Assembly (NCBI GenBank): GCA_963774265.1
Contig: CAVZDU010000001.1
Location: forward strand, 480,001 to 544,000
Length of the DNA: 64,000 nt
Direction: 5' to 3'
Source of the DNA: an uncultured Chloroflexia bacterium
GTDB lineage: Bacteria > Chloroflexota > Anaerolineae > CG2-30-64-16
Each line of letters opens with the position of its first letter. The stretch's first letter is position 1. Of the stretch, positions 9,152 to 20,018 are shown one piece after another. A program made the position numbers and the translations under genes. Below the pieces are notes generated by a model. That model searched no databases, was not told the DNA's origin, and was given only the letters and a program-made list of their open reading frames with translations.

Positions 9152-10249
9152 TCAGGGATGCTGCGCAATTGCTGGCATCATTCGGTGCGCGCTGTAGATC
9201 GTGTTCGCGTGATGCGTGATGTACTCGTACGGCAGATACCCATAGCCGGGCGCCCAGGCCCCATCCCATGCCCATGGCTGCCATGAATTGCGCACCAGGA
9301 AATAGCCCCCGCCCGGCGTATTTGGATCGTCCTGGTACCCGACCAAGGTCATCGCGTGACCGTCCAACACCGGCTCACCGGTGAGTGGCAAGGTGATCTT
9401 CCCCCAACGCGCCATCGCAGGCGACCTGTACCAACTTTCGAAAACAGGCACGGCAAAGGCGATGGTGCGACCTTCGACCAGGCACGTCTTCATTCCGGTG
9501 ATATCGAGGCGGTTGAAAGCCAGCGTTTGTGCGGTGCGATAAGCGGGGTCGCCGTCAGCCGCACTCTCGGGAGGAGGTCCCTGCCCCTCGTCTGACCGCG
9601 GCGCACTCACGTAGGGCCAGACCACTTCGATGGGCGCACCCATCTTTGCCAGGCAGCGCATGCCGAGCGAGAGGTAGGTGCCGGATCGCGTGGGCAGCCC
9701 ATCGTGTTCCTTGCACCACCAGTAAACGTACTGTTCCGACAGGTCGACGTCGCGCGGCGCACTCGCTGCGATTTCCAACTGCTCCCGCACCGCGAGCGCC
9801 GCAAAGGCCACGCATGTGCTGCGGCGGCCCTGGTTGCGCAAGGGTGGCAGCTGATCGAGCAGGCTGTGGCTGGCAGGAAGGGGTGCGCGAAGGGCGCCCT
9901 CATAAGGCGGCAGATCCCTGTGGCGTTGTTGGACGATATCGGGATCGTCCAACAACGCCCCCAGGCCGTATTCTGTTTCGGCAACTTGGAGATCGATGGC
10001 CCTGGAGGATGTGTAGTGCGCCAGGGGGATCAATCGTTGCGCGGCATTCACAATGGGATCGAACGCCGACCGGTGGATGCCCAACGCGGTGGCCAGGCGA
10101 CCACGAGTCGGCTCACTAATCCCGTAGACGCCGACCAGCTCCTGCGCCGTGTTGATCCATAGGCCATTGAGCGTACGAATTTGTGCCGCATTAAGGCCGC
10201 GTACACTGGTTAGCGGAATACCGCCACGGATCAGTTGGGGAGGGGCCAC
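9152..10249 (-). CDS. Papain-like (C1) cysteine peptidase with N-terminal helix-hairpin-helix-like domain
   Basis: NQGRRSTCVAFA, DLSEQYVY, GHAMTLVGY, VRNSW; no signal peptide. Confidence 0.85.
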   Translation of the reverse strand: MAPPQLIRGGIPLTSVRGLNAAQIRTLNGLWINTAQELVGVYGISEPTRGRLATALGIHRSAFDPIVNAAQRLIPLAHYTSSRAIDLQVAETEYGLGALLDDPDIVQQRHRDLPPYEGALRAPLPASHSLLDQLPPLRNQGRRSTCVAFAALAVREQLEIAASAPRDVDLSEQYVYWWCKEHDGLPTRSGTYLSLGMRCLAKMGAPIEVVWPYVSAPRSDEGQGPPPESAADGDPAYRTAQTLAFNRLDITGMKTCLVEGRTIAFAVPVFESWYRSPAMARWGKITLPLTGEPVLDGHAMTLVGYQDDPNTPGGGYFLVRNSWQPWAWDGAWAPGYGYLPYEYITHHANTIYSAHRMMPAIAQHP

Positions 10250-10262
10250 GCGTACCTCCGGT

Positions 10263-11442
10263 TCAAATCAGGCCGGTTTCCTTGCCCACCCTCTCGAAGA
10301 CGCTCAGGACGCGATCCATCTGCTCAAAGGTGTGAGTAGCCATGTAACTCGTGCGCAAGAGCTCGCGGCCGGGCTGGACGCCAGGCGAGAGCACCGGATT
10401 GACAAATACGCCTTCATCGAAAAGACGTTTCCAGACATAGATGGTCAGCATTTTCTCGCCGATCACCACCGGAATGATCGGCGTCGTGGAGTTGCCGATG
10501 TTAAAGCCAAGCTGGCGGTAGCCCTTCCGCATGTAGTCTGCGATCTTGCCCAGATGCTCCACGCGCTCGGGTTCGTCGCGCATGATCTTCAGTGCGGCCA
10601 ACGCGGCTGCGGCATTTGAAGGCGGGATGCTGGCGCTGAAGATTATCGAGCGTGCATGGTGCTTGATGAAGTGTACGACCTGCTCGTCGCCGGCGATGAA
10701 GCCACCCAAGGACGCGAATGACTTGCTGAAGGTGGACATGATGAGATCCACCTGGTCGGTCATGCCGAAGTGCGCGGCGGTGCCGCGGCCGCCCCCCAGA
10801 ATGCCAATGGCGTGCGCATCATCCACGAGGAGCCGGGCGCCGTATTTCTTGCACAGCGGGACCATCTCGGGCAGTGGAGCGATGTCACCCTCCATGCTGT
10901 AGAGGCCATCCACCACCACCAGTTTGCCCTTGTCTTCGGGCAGGCGAGAGAGCACGCGCTCCAGTTCCTCCATGTCCTGGTGGCCGAAGCGTTTGGTTTC
11001 ACCGTAGCTCAGTTTGGCGCCATCCACGATGCTGGCGTGATCTTCCTTGTCCAGGATCACGTAATCCCCGCGGCATACTCAGCGCGCTGATGGCACCCAG
11101 GTTGACCTGCATACCGGTGGAGAACACCAACGCAGCCTCTTTTCCTACGAATTGCGCCAGCTCGTGTTCGAGCTGCTCGTGCATCTCGAGCGTGCCGTTG
11201 AGAAAGCGCGAGCCGGTGCAACTGGTGCCATAGCGATGGATCGCTGCGATGGCGGCTTCGCGCACGCGCGGGTCAGTGGTTAGTCCCAGGTAGTTGTTCG
11301 ACCCGCACATGATCAAGCGATGGCCTTTGAACACCGCTTCGGAGCCTTCGTTCTCAGTCAGGGGAATGAAGTACGGGTAGTAACCCGCTGCGATGGCTTC
11401 TTTGGCCTCAGTGAATGCGTATGCCTTGTCAAAAAGATCCAT
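10263..11442 (-). CDS. Serine palmitoyltransferase-like alpha-oxoamine synthase (frameshift near 11075)
   Basis: [49 protein letters not shown] (PLP Lys), FSAS; two ORFs join with a one-base shift. Confidence 0.8.
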
Positions 11443-11452
11443 GATTGCTCCT

Positions 11453-12433
11453 TCAGGAAATATAGCCGTGTTCGACGTACCAGCGATAGGCCCGAGCCAC
11501 AGCGTCGCGGAATGGAAGGATGTGATAATTGAGTTCTCGGATCGCCTTGCCCGAATCGAAAAAGACGTTATGGGCGGACAGGCGCAGTTGATCGCCACTG
11601 GCGATTGGGCGCGCCACAAAGTGGTTAGTCATATCGAGCGCTGCGGCGGCTGGCGGCAATACCCAGGCCGGAATGGTCCAGCGCGGCGCGCGGCGACCGA
11701 CTATCTCCGCAATGACAGCCGTGATCTCGTTGTAAGTCAGATTTTCGCCACCAAGAATGTAGCGCTCGCCGGTGCGGCCTCGCTCTGCCGCAGCCAGGTG
11801 GCCCTGCACTACTGCATCGATGTCGGCCACGCTGACCCCGCCGGGTGGCGCAGCGGGAAGGGGCCACTTTGCCATCTCGACGATCAGGCTTCCGGAGATT
11901 TGGTTGTGATCCCCAGGGCCGATCACAATGGCCGGGTTAACGATGACGGCAGAAAGACCGTGGGCGACCGCGGCGAGGACTTCTTGCTCGGCCAGGTGTT
12001 TGCTGTGAGCGTACGCCCAGCGCTCCTCATCGCGGCCGAGCGATTGTGTTTCGTCGGCCGGTCGGCCATTGCGGGGCGCCCCGAGCGCCGCAACGGATGA
12101 GGTGTAAACCATCCGGGGGATCCCCGCTGCCAGGCAGGCGTCCAGGACCGTCCGCGTCCCTTCGAGGTTAACCCGGTAAACCTCCTCACGACGCGCCCGC
12201 CAATAGGATGAAACGGCGGCAACGTGAAACACGACGTCGCACCCACGCACCGCTGCATCGACAGACTCGCGTTCTAGAATGTCACCGAAAACGCACTCCA
12301 CGTCCAGTCCATCAAGCGCGATCATACTCGAGGTCTTGCGACGCAGCACCCGCACGTGGTCGCCGCGGCGAACGAGTGCGGCGGCGACCTGGCTGCCGAC
12401 GAAACCCGTAGCGCCAGTGACGAGGGCTTTCAC
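11453..12433 (-). CDS. Extended SDR NAD-dependent epimerase/reductase (HpnA/DFR-like; candidate ceramide reductase)
   Basis: [37 protein letters not shown]. Confidence 0.85.
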
Positions 12434-13564
12434 AGAGTTTTCTCGTAGATGCGATAGGTCTTGTAGCGCACGCCGCCAAGACGTTCGATGATTTGATTCA
12501 TCATCGTGTTGGTTTCCAGGATCCAGGATCCTTCAAGCCGCTTGTACCCACGGCGCAGCGCTTCCTCGGCGGTCTCCAGGTAGAAGATAGCGTCTGCGCC
12601 GCGACCGCGGTACTCCTCCATCATGCCCATGATCATCAGACGCACCTGGTCAATGTGGCGCCTGTGCCAGAGAAATTTGGGCAGGCCGAAGGGCCACATG
12701 TGACCGCCGCCCGACCGTTTGAGCGCCTGGTGCAGGTCGGGCATGGTCAGCGAGACCCCAGCGGGTTTGCCGTCTTCCGTTTCAGCAACGAAGATCAGGT
12801 TGGGATCGATCATGGGTTTGAGACTGGCCGCGAGATGGTCGATCTCATGATCGGTCATGGGCACAAACCCCCAGTTCTTCTGCCAGGCGCCATTATACGC
12901 CGCCTTGATTTTGATGACTTCTTCGTCGAAATGCTTCATGTCGATCTTGCGTACGCGCAGACCCTGCTTTTCAGCGGCCTTCCTGGCAACGCGGCGTAGC
13001 TTTTCGGGCGCCTCGGCCAACCCCTTTTCAATGTCCGAGAGCCAGGCATAGAGATCCATCGCCTTTATATAGCCAGCGTTTTCGATGAGATTTGGATAGT
13101 AGCGAGGGTTGTGTGTCATCATGAGCATTGGCGGTGTGTCGAACCCGTCGATCAGCGTTCCCACTTCGTCGTTCATGGAGAAGTTCAAAGGGCCGCGGAT
13201 AGCTTTCATCCCTTCCTGACGACACCAATTCTCGGCAGTCTCAAGCAGCGCATCTGCCACAGCCTGATCGTCGATGCACTCGAAGAATCCCCAGCCGCCG
13301 GCTAACTCGTTGTGCACCTGGTTGTGACGGTCATTGACCAACGCGCCGATGGTCCCCACCACCTCACCGAGCGCGTCGGGCTATGAAGAGCTGGTAGCGA
13401 GTATGCTCGTATAGCGGGTTCTTTTTCGTGTCGAAATAGGCCAGCCGTTCCTCGATCAGGGGGGGCACCCAGCAAGGATCGTCTTTGTACAGCCTGAACG
13501 GGAACTGGACGTATTCCACCATGCCCTTACGGGAATTGACGGGCTCGATGACGATATTGTTCAT
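12430..13564 (-). CDS. Tandem GNAT acyltransferase (YghO/bacterial ceramide synthase-like; frameshift near 13368)
   Basis: LYKDDPCWVPPL, WGFFEC, GPLNFSMNDEVG.LIDGF..PP..MM.HNP.YY, NWGFVP, SWILETN.MM. Confidence 0.8.
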
Positions 13565-14418
13565 GATGCCTCCCCTGATGCGACTTCTCTTGAGGACTGC
13601 TGCGCGCGTTTGCGCCGTGAACGGGCGATGAGCCGATCCAGGACCGAGAATTGAAGGTCTCCCAGGAAATTCGCCAGATGTGCGACCGCGGTCATTTCAA
13701 TCCCAGGCGTGATCGAATAGCGTTTGTGCCTTATCCCGTCGACGATTGAACGCGCTACGATTTCGGGTGAGATAACGGTGCCGCCATACACGTCGCGCGT
13801 TTCCGGCGGTTTGTAGGGCATCTCCCCGGCAAGTTGCGGTGTGTCAGTATCGGGTGGGTAGACGACTGATACGTGGATATTGTACGGCTTGAGCTCGAGT
13901 CGCAGCACATCGGAGAGGCCCCGCAGCGCGTGCTTGGAGGCGCCATACGCCGAGTAGCCGAACACGCTTAGCAGCGCCGCACCCGATGCCACGTTGACGA
14001 TGTGTCCGGATCCACGCGCGATCATCCCCGGCGTTACAGCCCGAATCGTATGCAGCGCGCCGAAGTAGTTGATGTCCATCATCTCGCGAAAGACGGCGAG
14101 ATCGAGTTCTTGGAAATAGCCTGGCCGGGAGACGCCGTGCGAATTGATGATGATATCCGGCAAGCCGGCAACGCGCGTCACCTCCGCCACCGCGAACGCC
14201 GCCTGGTCCGGGTCGGCGACATCTGCAGGTATGACACCACACTTTTGGTCAGAGCACTCACAAGCTGCCTGAACCTCGGGCAGTGCATCCGCGAGGCGCC
14301 CTGGTGTGCGCGCCACCAGCCAGACATGCGCTCCCTCTCGGGCGAAGTGTCGAGCCGTTGCCAGTCCGATGCCGCTCGAACCGCCGGTGATGAGAATGAC
14401 TTGGTTACGGAAGGTCAT
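13561..14418 (-). CDS. KDSR/Tsc10-like short-chain dehydrogenase (3-ketodihydrosphingosine reductase-like)
   Basis: ITGGSSGIG, INYFG, GYSAYGASK, and the KDSR-type VYPPDTDTP...E...KP.ET segment. Confidence 0.75.
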   Translation of the reverse strand: MTFRNQVILITGGSSGIGLATARHFAREGAHVWLVARTPGRLADALPEVQAACECSDQKCGVIPADVADPDQAAFAVAEVTRVAGLPDIIINSHGVSRPGYFQELDLAVFREMMDINYFGALHTIRAVTPGMIARGSGHIVNVASGAALLSVFGYSAYGASKHALRGLSDVLRLELKPYNIHVSVVYPPDTDTPQLAGEMPYKPPETRDVYGGTVISPEIVARSIVDGIRHKRYSITPGIEMTAVAHLANFLGDLQFSVLDRLIARSRRKRAQQSSREVASGEAS

Positions 14419-14467
14419 GAATGGAATACTCGGCTGGGTGGGATCGTTTCCGCGAGGTAACGACAGC

Positions 14468-14476
14468 ATTATAACA
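14468..14476 (-). promoter_or_regulatory. Extended -10 promoter upstream of the lipid operon
   Basis: TGTTATAAT on the minus strand about 50 nt upstream of the KDSR-like start. Confidence 0.55.
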
Positions 14477-14498
14477 CGCTTATGATCTTATGCAAACA

Positions 14499-17129
14499 TC
14501 AGTTTTCAAGCGCCGCTCGCAACAGCGCCTCCGTAAGCATCTTCGTGTCCAGTGCATACTCGTGCTCCAGCACCGGGCCGACACATGCGGGACAACCGTT
14601 CTCGCAGGGACAGGCGGTTACAAGATCGAGCGCAGCCCGCAAGACATCGGGCATTGACGCGAACAGCTGCTCGGCATACCCCACGCCACCCGAGGTTCGC
14701 TCGTATACGGTGATCGTGGGCATCCCGGTTGCGGAGTCCTGTGGCTCGGCAACGATGCCCAGGTCACGGCCGTCGCACATAAGAAACAGCGGCGCAACCC
14801 CTTCGATCAACGCCGCGACGCCGCCGAGACCGGAGCGGGTTCGCACGCCCGATTCGGCGCGGTGGTGGCAGGATTGGCACAGTGTGACCAGGTTATCCAA
14901 CCGGTTGGCTGCTTGCCAGGCGAGGCCGACCGGCAGGTCTTCTCGTCGGCTCACGTCCGCGACGAATCCGCGAAACGGAATTTTGTGATGTACGTCGTGT
15001 TGGCGGCCCGCCATCTCGATCGTGCCGCAGCCCTGACAGCGATAGCCATCCCGCTGCCGGACCGCATTCCGTGTTGCTGTCCACTGCGGTCCATAGTCAT
15101 TGGGGTCCGACAACCATTCGCCGGCTGCCTTCAGCGCCTCGACGGTGTGCTCGGGAAACGCTAACCAGCAGCCTTGTGTGTCCAGCGTCTGCTCGGGCAG
15201 GTCCACCTCTCCGAAGCCAAGCACTTCGCCCGTGTTGCGGCGTAGAATTTTGTACCCTGTGGCCTGAGACGTCACGCGTACATCGCCCCAGCCCAGATCA
15301 TACGGCAACACCTTACCTGTGGCACGGTGCAAGTCTGTCTCGTCTGCTGCCGACCCGCGCACTATCTGTATCTCGATCTTCTCCGCCGTGATTGGGCGCG
15401 TGTAGAAGTCGGCGTCGATCGCGCGCACGGTGGCCGCACCCGCTTCCCAGTCGAGCTTCTCCACTACATAGGATGCACCCTCGTGCAGGTAGACCGCCCC
15501 CTTGTAGAGCAACAAGGGCACACCTTCGCGGTCCAGCTCGCCGATGACCACAGGCTTGCCGTCATCCCCATGCGCCTGAATGACGACCCGGTCGTTCCCT
15601 GCGTTTCGCAGCCCCAAGGCCTGAGCCGGATTGCCCTCGCCTGCCCAAAAGTAGCGACCGCCCGAAAGGTAGAGCTGGCCTGTCTCAACGAGGTCCGCGA
15701 GCAGTCCCGTTGTTGTAGAGACATTGCCCGCAACGTCTTCACTACCCCCTGGGTAGGAAACACCGAGTTCCTCGGTCTCTTGCAGGGGCAGTTCTGCCGC
15801 CGCGCAGGCGAGATGCCCGGCCAGGATGATTTCATTATCAGGGTTGATGCGCGCATGTTCGGGTGAGCGCTCGAGTAGCCACCGAGGATGGGTCACGACA
15901 TATTGGTCGAGTGGCCCCGCTCCAGCCACGAACACCGCGACCGATGCGCCCTGCCGGCGGCCCGCGCGTCCCATCTGCTGTCGCGCGCTGGCGATGGTCC
16001 CAGGGTGCCCGGCCAGGATGGCCGCGCCCAGATGCCCGATATCGATGCCCAGTTCGAGTGCATTCGTTGCCACCACTGCCCCCACCGCACCCTTTCGCAA
16101 ACCCTGCTCGATCTCGCGACGATCTGCAGGCAGGTAGCCTCCACGGTAGCCACGGGCGCGGCTGCGTGCGGGAGCCGGCAAGCGCTCGCGCAGGTGTGTC
16201 AACATCAACTCAGCCGCGAGTCGCGCGCGGCCAAACAGGATGGTCTGCACGTCGTGTTCGACGAAATGGGCCGCAAGGTCCGCCGACTCCTGGACAGTGC
16301 TCCGGCGGATCCCCAGGTTGGGATCGACCACGGGTGGGTTGTAAAAAAGCACGTGCCTTTCGCCCTGTGGCGCACCGTCCATGTCTGGCCCTACCACGGT
16401 GACCGGCGCCTCGACCAGCCGCTCGGCGAGTTCGCCGGGGTTGGCAATGGTTGCGGACGCGAGGATGAATTGCGGTGTGGATCCTGCCCCGTAGAATCGG
16501 CAGATGCGGCGCAACCGGCGCAGCACGTTGGCGACGTGTGATCCGAAGACCCCGCGATACACGTGCATCTCATCGATGACTACGACGCGCAGCGAGGCAA
16601 AGAACGCGGCCCAGCGCGGGTGCTGCGGCAAGATGCCCATATGGAGCATGTCCGGGTTGGAGAGAATGATGCGCGAGTTGTCGCGAATTCTTGGGCGCTG
16701 GGCGGAAGGCGTGTCCCCGTCGTACGCGGCGGCGAGACCGCCAAGGGGAGTGGCGGCAAGCAGCGCGGTCAGTTCCGCGAGTTGGTCGTGACCGAGGGCC
16801 TTGGTTGGGAAGAGGTACAGGGCACGGGCGCGTGGATCGCTCAGCAGGCGCTGAAGCACAGGCAGGTTGTAGCAGAGTGTCTTCCCGCTGGCCGCGGGTG
16901 TGGCCACCACAACATGCTCGCCGTTGAGCGCCGCCGTGACGCTTGCCGCTTGATGCGTGTATAGAGCATTGACCCCACGTGCAGACAACGCGTTCAGCAG
17001 CCTCTCGTCCAAGCCTGCCGGAAAGGGCGCGAACTGAGGCGCTCGCGCAGGGACTCGCTCCCAGCGCACGACATTGCTCATGAATCGCGGCTCGAATCGC
17101 AGGGCCTCGAGGGCGGATTCGACGGACAT
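14499..17129 (-). CDS. DEAH-box helicase of the Hrq1/YprA(MrfA)/SftH family with DUF1998 Zn domain and an inserted HNH domain
   Basis: ASGKT, PTKAL, DEMH.YRGVFGSH, SATIANP, YRGGY, ATNALELGIDIG, QQMGRAGR, C-terminal CPCENGCPAC; HNH at about 14850-15105. Confidence 0.9.
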   Translation of the reverse strand: MSVESALEALRFEPRFMSNVVRWERVPARAPQFAPFPAGLDERLLNALSARGVNALYTHQAASVTAALNGEHVVVATPAASGKTLCYNLPVLQRLLSDPRARALYLFPTKALGHDQLAELTALLAATPLGGLAAAYDGDTPSAQRPRIRDNSRIILSNPDMLHMGILPQHPRWAAFFASLRVVVIDEMHVYRGVFGSHVANVLRRLRRICRFYGAGSTPQFILASATIANPGELAERLVEAPVTVVGPDMDGAPQGERHVLFYNPPVVDPNLGIRRSTVQESADLAAHFVEHDVQTILFGRARLAAELMLTHLRERLPAPARSRARGYRGGYLPADRREIEQGLRKGAVGAVVATNALELGIDIGHLGAAILAGHPGTIASARQQMGRAGRRQGASVAVFVAGAGPLDQYVVTHPRWLLERSPEHARINPDNEIILAGHLACAAAELPLQETEELGVSYPGGSEDVAGNVSTTTGLLADLVETGQLYLSGGRYFWAGEGNPAQALGLRNAGNDRVVIQAHGDDGKPVVIGELDREGVPLLLYKGAVYLHEGASYVVEKLDWEAGAATVRAIDADFYTRPITAEKIEIQIVRGSAADETDLHRATGKVLPYDLGWGDVRVTSQATGYKILRRNTGEVLGFGEVDLPEQTLDTQGCWLAFPEHTVEALKAAGEWLSDPNDYGPQWTATRNAVRQRDGYRCQGCGTIEMAGRQHDVHHKIPFRGFVADVSRREDLPVGLAWQAANRLDNLVTLCQSCHHRAESGVRTRSGLGGVAALIEGVAPLFLMCDGRDLGIVAEPQDSATGMPTITVYERTSGGVGYAEQLFASMPDVLRAALDLVTACPCENGCPACVGPVLEHEYALDTKMLTEALLRAALEN

Positions 17130-18276: not shown

Positions 18277-18981
18277 TCACGACTTGGAGTCGTCGGTGTC
18301 TTTCCTCACGCCGGCCTGTTGAAGGATCAGCTGCAGCCCGTGCTCGCCGAGTAGCGCCATTAACACGGGCCAGGCGATCAGCACTGTCACGGCCAGTGCG
18401 ATGCTGACTGCAGTCATCGCTCCCGCGAGAACGAGCAACAACACGGAAAACAGGGGGTTCGCAAGGACGGACAGCGCTGCCATACGCAGGCTGGAGACCA
18501 CCGTCGGTCTTTCCAGTGCGATAAAGAAGGGGTAGACATAAAGCTGGACGCTCAGCCAGAAGACTGTCAGGTAGCCCCAAATGATGCCGAACATTCGGAG
18601 CAGCGTGGTTGACTGGTAGAAGTAGAAGATAAGGTTGAGAAACAGCAAGCTGAGGACAACCATGCCGATCGCGTTCAGCGCCAGTCCTTGCTTCCACTGC
18701 GTCTTGTAAGCCTCGAAATATTGACTGCGTTCCACGTGTTGGTCGCGTGCGCAGCGACGGGCCACAGCGGCAAGGGCCATGATGGCCGGGCCGGCAGGGA
18801 TGGCGAGGATGGGAGCGATCCACCATGGTCCATCCGCCGAAAAAAACAAGTAACCCAATGCAAAGGCTAAGCCAACGAATACTCCGCCGGTTGCCCACCA
18901 CAGCAAACTCAGTCCAATCAGGAAGAACAGCTCATTGTAGAAGCTGACAAGTGCGCGCCAGGCGACGTTGAATGCTTTCAT
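18277..18981 (-). CDS. Integral membrane protein (DUF624/YesL-like)
   Basis: About 5-6 hydrophobic segments; GPAIMAL..VAR motif. Confidence 0.6.
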   Translation of the reverse strand: MKAFNVAWRALVSFYNELFFLIGLSLLWWATGGVFVGLAFALGYLFFSADGPWWIAPILAIPAGPAIMALAAVARRCARDQHVERSQYFEAYKTQWKQGLALNAIGMVVLSLLFLNLIFYFYQSTTLLRMFGIIWGYLTVFWLSVQLYVYPFFIALERPTVVSSLRMAALSVLANPLFSVLLLVLAGAMTAVSIALAVTVLIAWPVLMALLGEHGLQLILQQAGVRKDTDDSKS

Positions 18982-20018
18982 GGCGCCAAGACCGATAAAA
19001 TGGCCGTTTGAATTTCGGGGTTTGCCAATTGCCGATGATGCGAAACGACAGGCAGGGCATCGAGTAGGGAACGGGGCTCGGGTAGTGCCGGCGCGGTGGT
19101 TAAAGTCATGGCAATGCTCTTTCCGTCGACGAATGGGTAAGCTGTGCACGGCGTGTGCGGGATTTCTCGTGCGCTTTCGGCCGTCACGAGCAGGTCGCCA
19201 AAACTAACCGTGTGGTCGACCAGCGTGATGCGGTTCGCGCGAATGGTGATGCTGTAGCGGATGTCGCCGTATACTGTGTGACAGTTGACATGCCCCGGCA
19301 TCATCCCAGGCTTGTTCAATTCAGCCAGTACCGGGCTATCGGGGTGAAGTTGGCCGTAGATGGGTGAGTCCGTGAGCAAGACCCGGTTTTCCGGGAAGCC
19401 CGGGCTGTGTGCGGTTCGCTCAGCCACTTGTTGAGCATGCAACGCAGCCTCAAGTTGCTCGATAGTCGTCGCGGGTCGCGCAGGCGCCAGGCCAAGTCGT
19501 TCCAGCAGGCGGATGAACCGCCACATGAGTGAGCCGCGTGGGGCGAGGTCAATCAGTCGCGCGAGATCAGCCCCGCGGTGCGGGCTGCCGATGGTGATGA
19601 GGCGCCCTACATTGCCGCGATAAAGCGTTCCCCAGTCATCGTACATCGCCCGACTCAGGTAGTAGCGGCAGATGATACCGCCGAGGCTGTGTGCGATCAA
19701 CGTGACCTCTGCAGGACCACCGCGCGCCACGCTGTTGTCGCTGAGTTGATCGACGCTGCACAGGAGCCGATCTTCGGTTGACAGGTTTGCTCCCGCCAGC
19801 CGGCTGGCGATTTCCCGCAGGTCGCCCCGGTTGTTGTACGTCCCGTCTGGAGCGATCCCATAGTCGAAGGTGCGGATCAGGTTCGGGTCCAGATTGCCCT
19901 TTAGGATCAGACGCTGGCGAAAACCGGACTCGGTCCAGACAGAAGGCGCGCCGTCGAATCCATGCACCAGCATGATCGGGATCAGTCTTGGCACGACGCG
20001 CCTCCTTTTAGAAGTCAC
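18978..20018 (-). CDS. Alpha/beta hydrolase (PGAP1/lipase-like)
   Basis: LVHGF, nucleophile elbow AHSLGG, ITIGSPHRG, GDLLV. Confidence 0.85.
   Translation of the reverse strand: MTSKRRRVVPRLIPIMLVHGFDGAPSVWTESGFRQRLILKGNLDPNLIRTFDYGIAPDGTYNNRGDLREIASRLAGANLSTEDRLLCSVDQLSDNSVARGGPAEVTLIAHSLGGIICRYYLSRAMYDDWGTLYRGNVGRLITIGSPHRGADLARLIDLAPRGSLMWRFIRLLERLGLAPARPATTIEQLEAALHAQQVAERTAHSPGFPENRVLLTDSPIYGQLHPDSPVLAELNKPGMMPGHVNCHTVYGDIRYSITIRANRITLVDHTVSFGDLLVTAESAREIPHTPCTAYPFVDGKSIAMTLTTAPALPEPRSLLDALPVVSHHRQLANPEIQTAILSVLAP

Follow-up and report, generated by a model that had tools for sequence, protein, structure and literature searches.

A candidate ceramide-type lipid operon with two putative ketoreductases in an Anaerolineales genome

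Introduction

The ceramide genes of Caulobacter crescentus and E. coli B comprise spt, acpR, cerR/epi, aasR and cerS (CC_1154/YghO). The order of the steps is disputed in print, as either reduction followed by acylation or acylation followed by reduction. The presence of both routes (KDSR then CerS, and CerS then CerR) within one organism has already been discussed for Bacteroidota. In the accounts considered here, a classical SDR that acts on 3-ketosphinganine ahead of acylation has been either proposed or demonstrated, as for Bacteroides thetaiotaomicron BT_0972 and the eukaryotic KDSR/Tsc10. Rubrobacter radiotolerans and Streptomyces plasmids and an Aureispira plasmid hold contiguous genes for Spt, a GNAT and an NAD(P)-dependent extended SDR.

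In Chloroflexota, the main text of Ding et al. 2024 (ISME J) reports 218 MAGs with Spt-like genes and links Anaerolineae to ceramides. Some Spt-like genes of their Black Sea MAGs, which belong to the same phylum and class as our locus, lie beside bCerS and CerR homologues. That main text does not mention KDSR, and our locus has a KDSR-like SDR. The proposal that Chloroflexota produce sphingolipids was restated in 2025. The first-pass annotation of this DNA, which took the phylum as not generally recognised for sphingolipids, is outdated in this respect.

We analyzed a four-gene locus of an uncultured Chloroflexota bacterium. It has three enzyme classes in common with the Caulobacter and E. coli B systems. 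However, it has no dedicated ACP or acyl-ACP synthetase, its Spt is of the Bacteroidota rather than the proteobacterial type, its reductase is only distantly similar, and it carries an extra KDSR-like SDR. The cerS-type gene is inside the operon, whereas in Rhodobacteria it is described as always a separate transcription unit. The Rubrobacter, Streptomyces and Aureispira triads have the same three contiguous classes (GNATs 38-41% and AOSs 46-51% identical to ours). They differ in gene order, have no KDSR-like SDR at the locus, and encode reductases with HpnA model scores of 97-173 bits, where ours reaches 333. BT_0972 and KDSR/Tsc10 are of the same SDR class as our classical SDR, a likeness by description for BT_0972 and human KDSR and by alignment for Cryptococcus TSC10; unlike our gene, BT_0972 is described as unclustered with spt. 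Both kinds of ketoreductase in one operon are unusual, although Chloroflexota sphingolipids and the coexistence of two routes were already proposed. A compact gene set of this kind is relevant to the 2024-2025 proposal of Chloroflexota as important, so far unproven, environmental producers.

Results and discussion

Operon layout and proposed pathway

The window is the whole stretch of 64,000 nucleotides analyzed here (contig CAVZDU010000001.1, assembly GCA_963774265.1). Four co-oriented genes occupy its minus strand from 14418 to 10263 and encode a classical SDR, a tandem GNAT, an extended SDR and an alpha-oxoamine synthase (AOS; Table 1). Pfam and NCBIfam profiles confirm these family assignments. 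The genes overlap by 4 nt at the SDR/GNAT and GNAT/extended SDR junctions, and 10 nt separate the extended SDR from the AOS, so the near-touching ends described at first are real. The SDR frame (13561-14469) is open from 14469; its true start is likely M18, at 14418, as in relatives. As assembled, the GNAT consists of two ORFs (13364-13564 and 12430-13362) and the AOS of two parts, the N-part from the ATG at 11442 and the C-part at 10263-11060. The closest named homologues and loci are of the Anaerolineales type, in agreement with the Chloroflexota origin suggested from the letters alone.

Table 1. Features of the operon and its flanks in the window.
Feature	Coordinates	Strand	Description	Basis or remark
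Putative promoter	14468..14496	-	sigma-70-like match, TTTGCA-17-TATAAT with TG	between helicase stop and SDR start; consensus match only
Classical SDR	13561..14418	-	KDSR/Tsc10-like, 285 aa from M18	Pfam, PDB sequence search, ortholog alignment
Tandem GNAT	12430..13564	-	N-acyltransferase, YghO/CC_1154 (bCerS) family, 377 aa	one extra base breaks frame
Insertion site in GNAT	13369..13371	-	1-nt insertion, splits the gene	
Extended SDR	11453..12433	-	epimerase family, 326 aa, putative CerR counterpart	HpnA-like sequence
AOS	10263..11442	-	serine palmitoyltransferase-like, ~392 aa	one extra base breaks frame
Insertion site in AOS	11078..11081 (~11080)	-	1-nt insertion, splits the gene	
Papain-like protein	9152..10249	-	Peptidase_C1, weak match	Pfam 2.7e-07; 13 nt downstream of AOS

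The earlier reading of a sphingolipid/ceramide-type operon stands: the AOS is SPT-like, the GNAT is of the bCerS family, the extended SDR is a reductase of the epimerase family, and the classical SDR beside them is KDSR-like. As that reading also noticed, an ACP gene is absent from the cluster: the PP-binding (ACP) domain has 4 matches in the genome, none of them in the window and the nearest ~170 kb away. We consider it probable that the operon serves the synthesis of a ceramide-type (N-acyl sphingoid) membrane lipid, has two candidate 3-keto reductases and owes its frame breaks to artefact.

From family assignments, synteny and co-occurrence we infer the substrates, the order of the steps and the product. 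The AOS (Spt) would join serine and an acyl thioester into 3-ketosphinganine. In view of the missing dedicated ACP, acyl-CoA is the probable thioester, as it is for SPT of the Bacteroidota type. The GNAT would N-acylate the long-chain base. The extended SDR may carry out a CerR-like reduction of 3-oxo-ceramide (acylate first). The classical SDR may reduce free 3-ketosphinganine (reduce first), as an accessory or alternative reductase beside the other three enzymes. The two reductase types could make the pathway hybrid or branched, as first suggested. One operon with a candidate enzyme for each route bears on the disputed step order.

The synthase is closest to Bacteroidota-type SPT

The AOS read-through scores best on the NCBIfam model SerpalmtaseCFB (SPT-CFB), with 529.3 bits. 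It remains below the cut-off of this model (640) and of every other SPT equivalog: BetaP SPT gives 397.9 bits (cut-off 500) and AlphaP 343 (cut-off 670). E. coli Spt, our positive control, exceeds the BetaP SPT cut-off. SPT-CFB leads the next-scoring model by ~130 bits, and the non-SPT models give 375 (Kbl-related) and 366 bits (bioF). The top PDB match is the SPT of Sphingobacterium multivorum (290 bits; runner-up 202). In the alignment with 3a2b, over the C-terminal 260 residues, DHASI/HASI(V)DG, DDAH, TFSKS and the C-terminal Arg all line up. TFSKS, flagged at first as an SPT-like signature around the PLP lysine, corresponds to GTFSKS in S. multivorum SPT. A grouping with BioF/Kbl, which would have counted against the first-pass annotation, is not what profiles and structures give. 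Separate Kbl/BioF-like paralogues also exist in the source genome. By these matches, the AOS has its closest relation with SPT, ahead of Kbl, BioF, ALAS and CqsA, and among SPTs with the Bacteroidota type.

The product could also be a related lipid that does not come from serine, either a 1-deoxy-sphingoid ceramide (from alanine or glycine) or a capnine-type sulfonolipid. In the capnine-type route, cysteate and acyl-CoA are condensed, and ketoreduction and N-acylation follow. The scores below the SPT cut-offs fit such a product, as do the matches to solved cysteate-C-fatty acyltransferases (~170 bits). Parts of the literature describe sulfonolipid synthesis as sharing the logic of AOS, SDR and N-acyltransferase, and 1-deoxyceramides as abundant where Spt-bearing Chloroflexota live. 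Nevertheless, the AOS obtains 290 bits with a true SPT and ~170 with the cysteate enzymes, the best profile is SPT-CFB by the margin given above, and the neighbour genes examined include no cysteate synthase. We regard a product not derived from serine as unlikely, and a serine-derived ceramide as the better reading.

The tandem GNAT resembles bacterial ceramide synthases

The GNAT is 36% identical to E. coli YghO across 99% of its length. YghO sits in the yghO / aasR-epi-acpR-spt locus, and PMC9386255 lists it as a homologue of Caulobacter CC_1154 (cerS), both as 'aca'. The tie to CC_1154 passes through YghO, with which the direct sequence comparison was made. Homologues of the GNAT directly adjoin SPT-like genes in Rubrobacter, Streptomyces and Aureispira, and one in Roseomonas is within a Caulobacter-like sphingolipid locus. 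All five Spt-linked reference GNATs score higher to the window GNAT clade (207-318 bits) than to the paralogue of the source genome (146-184). In the ML tree, the sister of the proteobacterial/actinobacterial bCerS-type proteins is either the window clade or another Chloroflexota paralogue clade (SH-aLRT of 86 at the deep forks). An AF2 model of an 89%-identical orthologue (pLDDT 89.8) has tandem-GNAT proteins (2wpw, 7q3a) as its top Foldseek matches, and the fold named in the first-pass annotation is borne out. Judged by these similarities, the GNAT belongs to the YghO/CC_1154 family of bacterial ceramide synthases.

The KDSR-like SDR is accessory and often takes the place of the extended SDR

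In family f1, the GNAT, extended SDR and AOS genes are contiguous in 13 of the 14 loci examined, and 10 of the 14 also include the classical SDR. The first three form the conserved core in family f1, to which the KDSR-like SDR is an accessory. We also counted the genes in a class sample of 121 genomes. These are kin and the thresholds were chosen by us, so Fisher values overstate the associations among the following counts. An Spt orthologue is present in 78 genomes, 64 with the GNAT and 14 without; among the Spt-less genomes, 10 have the GNAT and 33 do not. The extended SDR is present in 41 genomes, and 38 of these carry Spt. The Spt-bearing genomes divide into 34 with the extended SDR only, 13 with the KDSR-like SDR only, 4 with both and 27 with neither at the chosen thresholds; therefore, other reductases exist. 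Across the class, the KDSR-like SDR mostly replaces the extended SDR and seldom accompanies it. Within the sample, only this Anaerolineales family combines both reductases with bCerS and Spt in a single operon.

The classical SDR matches Pfam adh_short (2.2e-49). Its best single-domain PDB sequence match is Cryptococcus TSC10 (8jat, 1e-27), over residues 24-258 (235 residues), and the likeness reaches through the C-terminal substrate region. The margin over other SDRs is only ~10 bits (100.7 against 91.0 for the next). The nearest ESM Atlas clusters are named 3-dehydrosphinganine reductase, names that are automatic. Foldseek with the SDR model does not discriminate, and the matches listed, to rank 49, do not include Tsc10 (8jat). 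Human KDSR carries a PPDTDTP-like motif. The PPDTDTP motif first seen in our SDR is present, and all 10 of the 10 orthologues aligned share an unchanged PPDTDTPQ, as well as TGGSSGIG (T11-G18), S145, Y158 and K162 (alignment numbering).

Homologues of the SDR have an AOS neighbour in 22 of 80 loci, distributed in Chloroflexota, Spirochaetes, Cyanobacteria and Alphaproteobacteria. Of these 22 AOS neighbours, ten are Spt orthologues with 66-89% identity; BioF-like ones are among the rest. In several cyanobacteria and Stappia, the AOS beside the same SDR family scores best as BioF-like and not as SPT-like. Among 22 Chloroflexota-titled loci, 10 have an SDR-Spt pair, as do 2 spirochaete loci.

A different role for the classical SDR has to be weighed. 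It could be a generic or otherwise specialised enzyme, whose substrate might be, for example, an acyl chain that is hydroxylated or oxidised, or a head group, and the extended SDR alone would reduce the 3-keto group. The SDR is accessory: at E<=1e-30 it was not found in five genomes (G012, G013, G016, G017, G018) that retain the core genes, whether or not as a cluster. The non-specific Foldseek result and the small Tsc10 margin point in the same direction. However, the family recurs beside AOS genes across the groups named above, Spt-bearing genomes with this SDR largely complement those with the extended SDR, and genome G008 keeps SDR-Spt after the GNAT and extended SDR were lost from the locus. 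A role apart from the 3-keto group seems to us slightly less likely still than the lipid not derived from serine, and we keep the SDR as a candidate 3-keto reductase.

A broader proposal, which we put forward tentatively and think will rather fail than hold, is that the SDR truly serves bacteria as a 3-ketosphinganine reductase and that SDR-Spt forms an old two-gene module found in Chloroflexota, Spirochaetes and further phyla. In that case, the reduce-first route known from eukaryotes would be common in bacteria and would alternate with the acylate-first route of the bCerS/CerR type. This Anaerolineales family would have both in one cell, and among bacterial proteins these SDRs would be the nearest relatives of eukaryotic KDSR.

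The frame breaks are most likely assembly errors

The window sequence splits two genes, the AOS (~11080) and the GNAT (13369-13371), as the first-pass annotation had stated. It also considered that the operon might be decaying. The comparison here was with contigs from metagenome runs of related strains. Within 10200-14500, indels against these contigs fall only at the two sites, with one base fewer at 11080 in 4 of 4 runs and at 13369-13371 in 3 of 4. The AOS and GNAT orthologues are in frame in all relatives examined. In the same assembly, rpoB and rpoC are likewise frame-broken, and so are one GNAT paralogue and one Kbl-like paralogue. Since the relatives are in frame, the related contigs are one base shorter and rpoB and rpoC are also broken, both frameshifts are most likely assembly errors, and the organism itself would carry an intact operon.

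Real frameshifts, with the GNAT and Spt as pseudogenes here, would agree with the presence of both breaks in the window sequence and with runs that hold related strains only. Against this, broken frames extend to the four genes named above, the assembly has 10 contigs but no more than 84% completeness, the split GNAT and AOS have no further lesions, and each half is 88-97% identical to the protein of the nearest relative. Decay is very improbable. The pathway will escape automated annotation of the source genome, whose completeness is underestimated.

The extended SDR is a putative CerR counterpart

The extended SDR matches Pfam Epimerase (5e-36) and has an N-terminal Rossmann motif. Its top curated model is HpnA (TIGR03466, hopanoid-associated sugar epimerase). 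Four Spt-linked CerR-type proteins obtain 93-173 bits on this model, against 333 for ours. The extended SDR is the best match in the source genome for the E. coli epi/CerR homologue (a weak 47 bits, with an HpnA score far above that of epi) and for the Spt-adjacent reductase of Rubrobacter (92 bits). Ten genomes from 5 families have it next to Spt (the source genome G000 and G065, G108, G077, G120, G025, G074, G084, G057, G100). The identification as CerR made at first holds in part: the protein is Spt-linked and the best genome match of CerR-type reductases, but it is not a clear orthologue and scores nearer to HpnA. We take it as a putative functional counterpart of CerR with an HpnA-like sequence. 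That it is the HpnA of hopanoid metabolism, in this cluster by coincidence, is hardly credible despite the top model (333.5 bits), as the score is under the cut-off (367.65), the best hopene cyclase match in the 84% complete genome has 34 bits against a cut-off of 431, and the gene overlaps the GNAT gene by 4 nt in a Spt/GNAT context with Spt adjacency kept in 5 families.

Downstream flank

The papain-like gene is kept directly downstream of the AOS in family f1 loci. It may be co-transcribed with the operon. A terminator-like site follows it on the minus strand (9153-9136).

Gene order and spacing

In the window, the minus strand carries four consecutive genes that probably make up a ceramide-synthesis operon. 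These genes encode a KDSR-like classical SDR, a tandem GNAT of the YghO/CC_1154 (bCerS) family, an extended SDR, and a Spt-like alpha-oxoamine synthase (AOS). The compact arrangement described in the first-pass annotation is confirmed. Stop and start codons overlap by 4 nt between SDR and GNAT and between GNAT and the extended SDR, and 10 nt separate the extended SDR from the AOS. By consensus matching only, no terminator-like site was found on the minus strand inside the four-gene cluster. The cluster also holds no ACP gene, as first noted: a profile search gave four PP-binding (ACP) matches in the genome and none in the window.

Features of the candidate ceramide operon (window coordinates)
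Feature	Position	Strand	Remark
Sigma-70-like match	14496-14468	minus	between the upstream MrfA-type helicase gene and the SDR; consensus match only
Classical SDR	13561-14469	minus	relatives begin at the residue matching M18 (14418)
GNAT gene	13364-13564 + 12430-13362	minus	split in two ORFs
Extended SDR	11453-12433	minus	
AOS	N-part from ATG 11442; C-part 10263-11060	minus	split
Papain-like gene	9152-10249	minus	13 nt after the AOS

Frame interruptions in the GNAT and AOS genes

Deleting one base restores the frame in each of the two split genes. The earlier annotation had considered that these frameshifts could be real and the operon decaying, and the evidence goes against it. We compared positions 10200-14500 with contigs from four public metagenome runs, interpreting only covered positions. 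Public sequencing runs share at most 0.17 of words with the stretch, and therefore contain related strains (90-99% alike) and not the source sample. The comparison gave three indel rows only. One base at position 11080 (AOS) is absent from the related-strain contigs of all four runs, and one base at position 13369 or 13371 (GNAT) from those of three. Likewise, at each of the relatives' loci examined, both halves of GNAT and of AOS share one frame, which led us to reject programmed frameshifting.

The window's assembly (10 contigs, 84% completeness) has frame breaks elsewhere, in rpoB, rpoC, one GNAT paralogue and one Kbl-like paralogue. More precisely, rpoB and rpoC (G000:C7:822-8551, in the window's genome but outside the window) are each broken across different reading frames. 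Both genes are essential, so they are not pseudogenes; their breaks therefore point to indel errors in the assembly, and the four-gene operon is most probably intact in the organism. Together with the related-strain contigs and the in-frame relatives, they argue strongly that the GNAT and AOS frameshifts are assembly artefacts. Such errors across the assembly mean that many genes are split and that completeness estimates are lowered. An indel in the assembly may also have split a gene between 18277 and 20018 on the minus strand, where ORF 18277-19149 (DUF624) shares about 170 nt with ORF 18978-20018.

Enzyme families

The AOS is SPT-like rather than KBL- or BioF-like, as proposed from its motif. 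Its read-through scored highest on the NCBIfam model SerpalmtaseCFB (529 bits), followed by betaproteobacterial SPT (398), Kbl-related (375) and bioF (366), with all four scores under the respective cut-offs. Among solved structures, the C-part matched Sphingobacterium multivorum SPT best (290 bits; next entry 202), and the TFSKS motif around the PLP lysine is identical in that enzyme. Kbl/BioF-like genes are present separately in the genome.

Homologues of the GNAT, about 377 aa long, number over 6800, and the named ones come from Chloroflexi/Anaerolineae. An AF2 model of an orthologue (89% identical; pLDDT 89.8) matched tandem-GNAT proteins in structure, and a sequence search of the PDB gave no meaningful match. 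In a plasmid collection, the GNAT is 36% identical to E. coli YghO over 99% of the length. The neighbours of the YghO gene encode a fatty acyl-AMP ligase, an epimerase-family protein, an ACP and an AOS. Padilla-Gomez et al. (2022, PMC9386255) give yghO and Caulobacter CC_1154 as encoding the N-acyltransferase of dihydroceramide synthesis. GNAT homologues directly adjoin SPT-like genes in Rubrobacter, Streptomyces and Aureispira, and in Roseomonas one lies within a Caulobacter-like locus. A maximum-likelihood tree of 47 tandem GNATs (row L145 left out as identical to L062) did not resolve the deep branching order, so pairwise scores were used for placement. All five reference GNATs scored higher against the window's clade (207-318 bits) than against a paralogue in the same genome (146-184). 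Besides the window's GNAT, this genome has two tandem-GNAT paralogues, about 30-36% identical (G000:C10:162812-163903 and G000:C1:207617-208743). The second is also frame-broken.

The best curated model for the extended SDR is HpnA (333.5 bits, cut-off 367.65). HpnA is also the best model for the Spt-linked reductases of four reference loci, but these score only 93-173 bits, so the window's enzyme is far more HpnA-like. A hopanoid role was rejected, as no hopene cyclase was found in the 84%-complete assembly. In this genome, the extended SDR is the protein that the E. coli epi/CerR homologue (47 bits) and the Rubrobacter reductase (92 bits) match best. On the basis of these matches and the lack of a detectable hopene cyclase, we regard it as a putative equivalent of CerR in function rather than as an established orthologue.

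For the classical SDR, sequence similarity suggests a KDSR/Tsc10-like enzyme. Its best single-domain match among solved structures is Cryptococcus TSC10 (1e-27, residues 24-258, including the C-terminal region). The nearest ESM Atlas clusters are automatically named 3-dehydrosphinganine reductase, and PPDTDTPQ is invariant in 10/10 orthologues. A Foldseek search of the PDB with its model returned generic classical SDRs, which does not discriminate for KDSR membership.

Distribution in the family and the class

At the 14 loci examined in f1, the family of the window's genome, the order helicase-[SDR]-GNAT-extended SDR-AOS-papain-like is conserved. GNAT-extended SDR-AOS forms an unbroken block at 13 of these loci. 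Ten loci have the SDR and four lack it (G012, G013, G015, G016); a genome-wide search at E<=1e-30 gave no SDR match in G012, G013, G016, G017 and G018. In G008, another genus of f1, the locus (L040, G008:C11:99000-114000) reads helicase-SDR-AOS-papain-like, with GNAT and extended SDR absent. This assembly has many frame breaks as well. The papain-like protein (365 aa, weak Peptidase_C1 match) keeps its gene position 3' of the Spt-like gene across the f1 loci, including G008.

We then considered 121 genomes drawn evenly from the class, with match thresholds set by us. The Spt orthologue was found in 78, GNAT in 74, the extended SDR in 41 and the KDSR-like SDR in 20. Spt and GNAT occur together in 64 genomes (Spt alone 14, GNAT alone 10, neither 33). 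Spt is present in 38/41 genomes with the extended SDR and in 17/20 with the KDSR-like SDR; Fisher values overstate these associations because the genomes are kin. The 78 Spt-bearing genomes have the extended SDR alone in 34 cases, the KDSR-like SDR alone in 13, both in four and neither in 27. The full set of four genes is confined to three f1 genomes: the window's genome, G065 and G108. Outside f1, the only further three-gene clustering seen in this sample is in G074 (G074:C22:46666-50483), with Spt on one strand and extended SDR-GNAT divergent on the other.

Proposed pathway and known systems

We give minor weight to a sulfonolipid as the operon product. A ceramide is the likely product. Spt would form 3-ketosphinganine, with acyl-CoA as the probable donor because a dedicated ACP or acyl-ACP synthetase is absent. 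The bCerS-family GNAT would N-acylate the long-chain base. The 3-keto group would be reduced by the extended SDR on the ceramide, or by the KDSR-like SDR on the free base. The first-pass annotation had proposed a hybrid or branched pathway. Its basis, the enzyme families and both reductase types in one operon, stands, and f1 keeps both types there. The reductases have a mostly complementary distribution across Spt-bearing genomes, and in some genomes the only neighbouring pair is SDR-Spt or Spt-extended SDR. Both observations suggest that the two are alternative enzymes meeting the same chemical need.

In its enzyme classes, the operon matches the bacterial ceramide pathway. Bacteroides has a known classical-SDR 3-ketosphinganine reductase, and two parallel routes within one organism have already been discussed for Bacteroidota. 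In Rhodobacteria, cerS is described as always a separate transcription unit, whereas the window's cerS lies inside a compact operon. The phylum had been taken as unrecognized for sphingolipids, which no longer holds: Ding et al. (2024) propose Chloroflexota (Anaerolineae) as producers, based on 218 MAGs with Spt-like genes and on ceramide correlations, and the literature covered cites no culture evidence. None of the papers searched describes a Spt operon of Chloroflexota that contains a KDSR-like gene, although the surroundings of Spt in this phylum may already be illustrated in the supplements or figures of Ding et al. New here, relative to the papers searched, are the compact operon including cerS, both reductase types within it, the HpnA-like character of the extended SDR, and the wide SDR-AOS pairing.

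SDR homologues beside synthases in other genomes

An SDR-alignment scan of species-representative genomes gave 80 loci, 22 with an AOS within the flank. Among Chloroflexota-titled loci, a Spt orthologue (66-89% identical) is immediately 3' of the SDR in 10/22. Two spirochaete loci read GNAT-SDR-AOS or SDR-AOS, with an AOS of SPT-CFB type. The AOS beside the SDR homologue in Acaryochloris, Microcystis, Scytonema and Stappia scores best as BioF-like, and that of a Limnothrix MAG as SPT-CFB-like.

SDR homologues are directly downstream of an AOS in cyanobacteria (L059, L068, L071, L074, L081, L085, L090) and 2-3 kb downstream in alphaproteobacteria (L094, L104, L105). They are 37-47% identical to the KDSR-like SDR. 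An unexplored amino-ketone reduction module is possible in cyanobacteria. Finally, a tandem-GNAT paralogue only distantly related to the window's GNAT (27-34% identity) adjoins SDR-Spt or SDR at L062 (Dehalococcoidia MAG), L091 (Spirochaetes MAG) and L101, where a different GNAT subfamily may serve as the acyltransferase.
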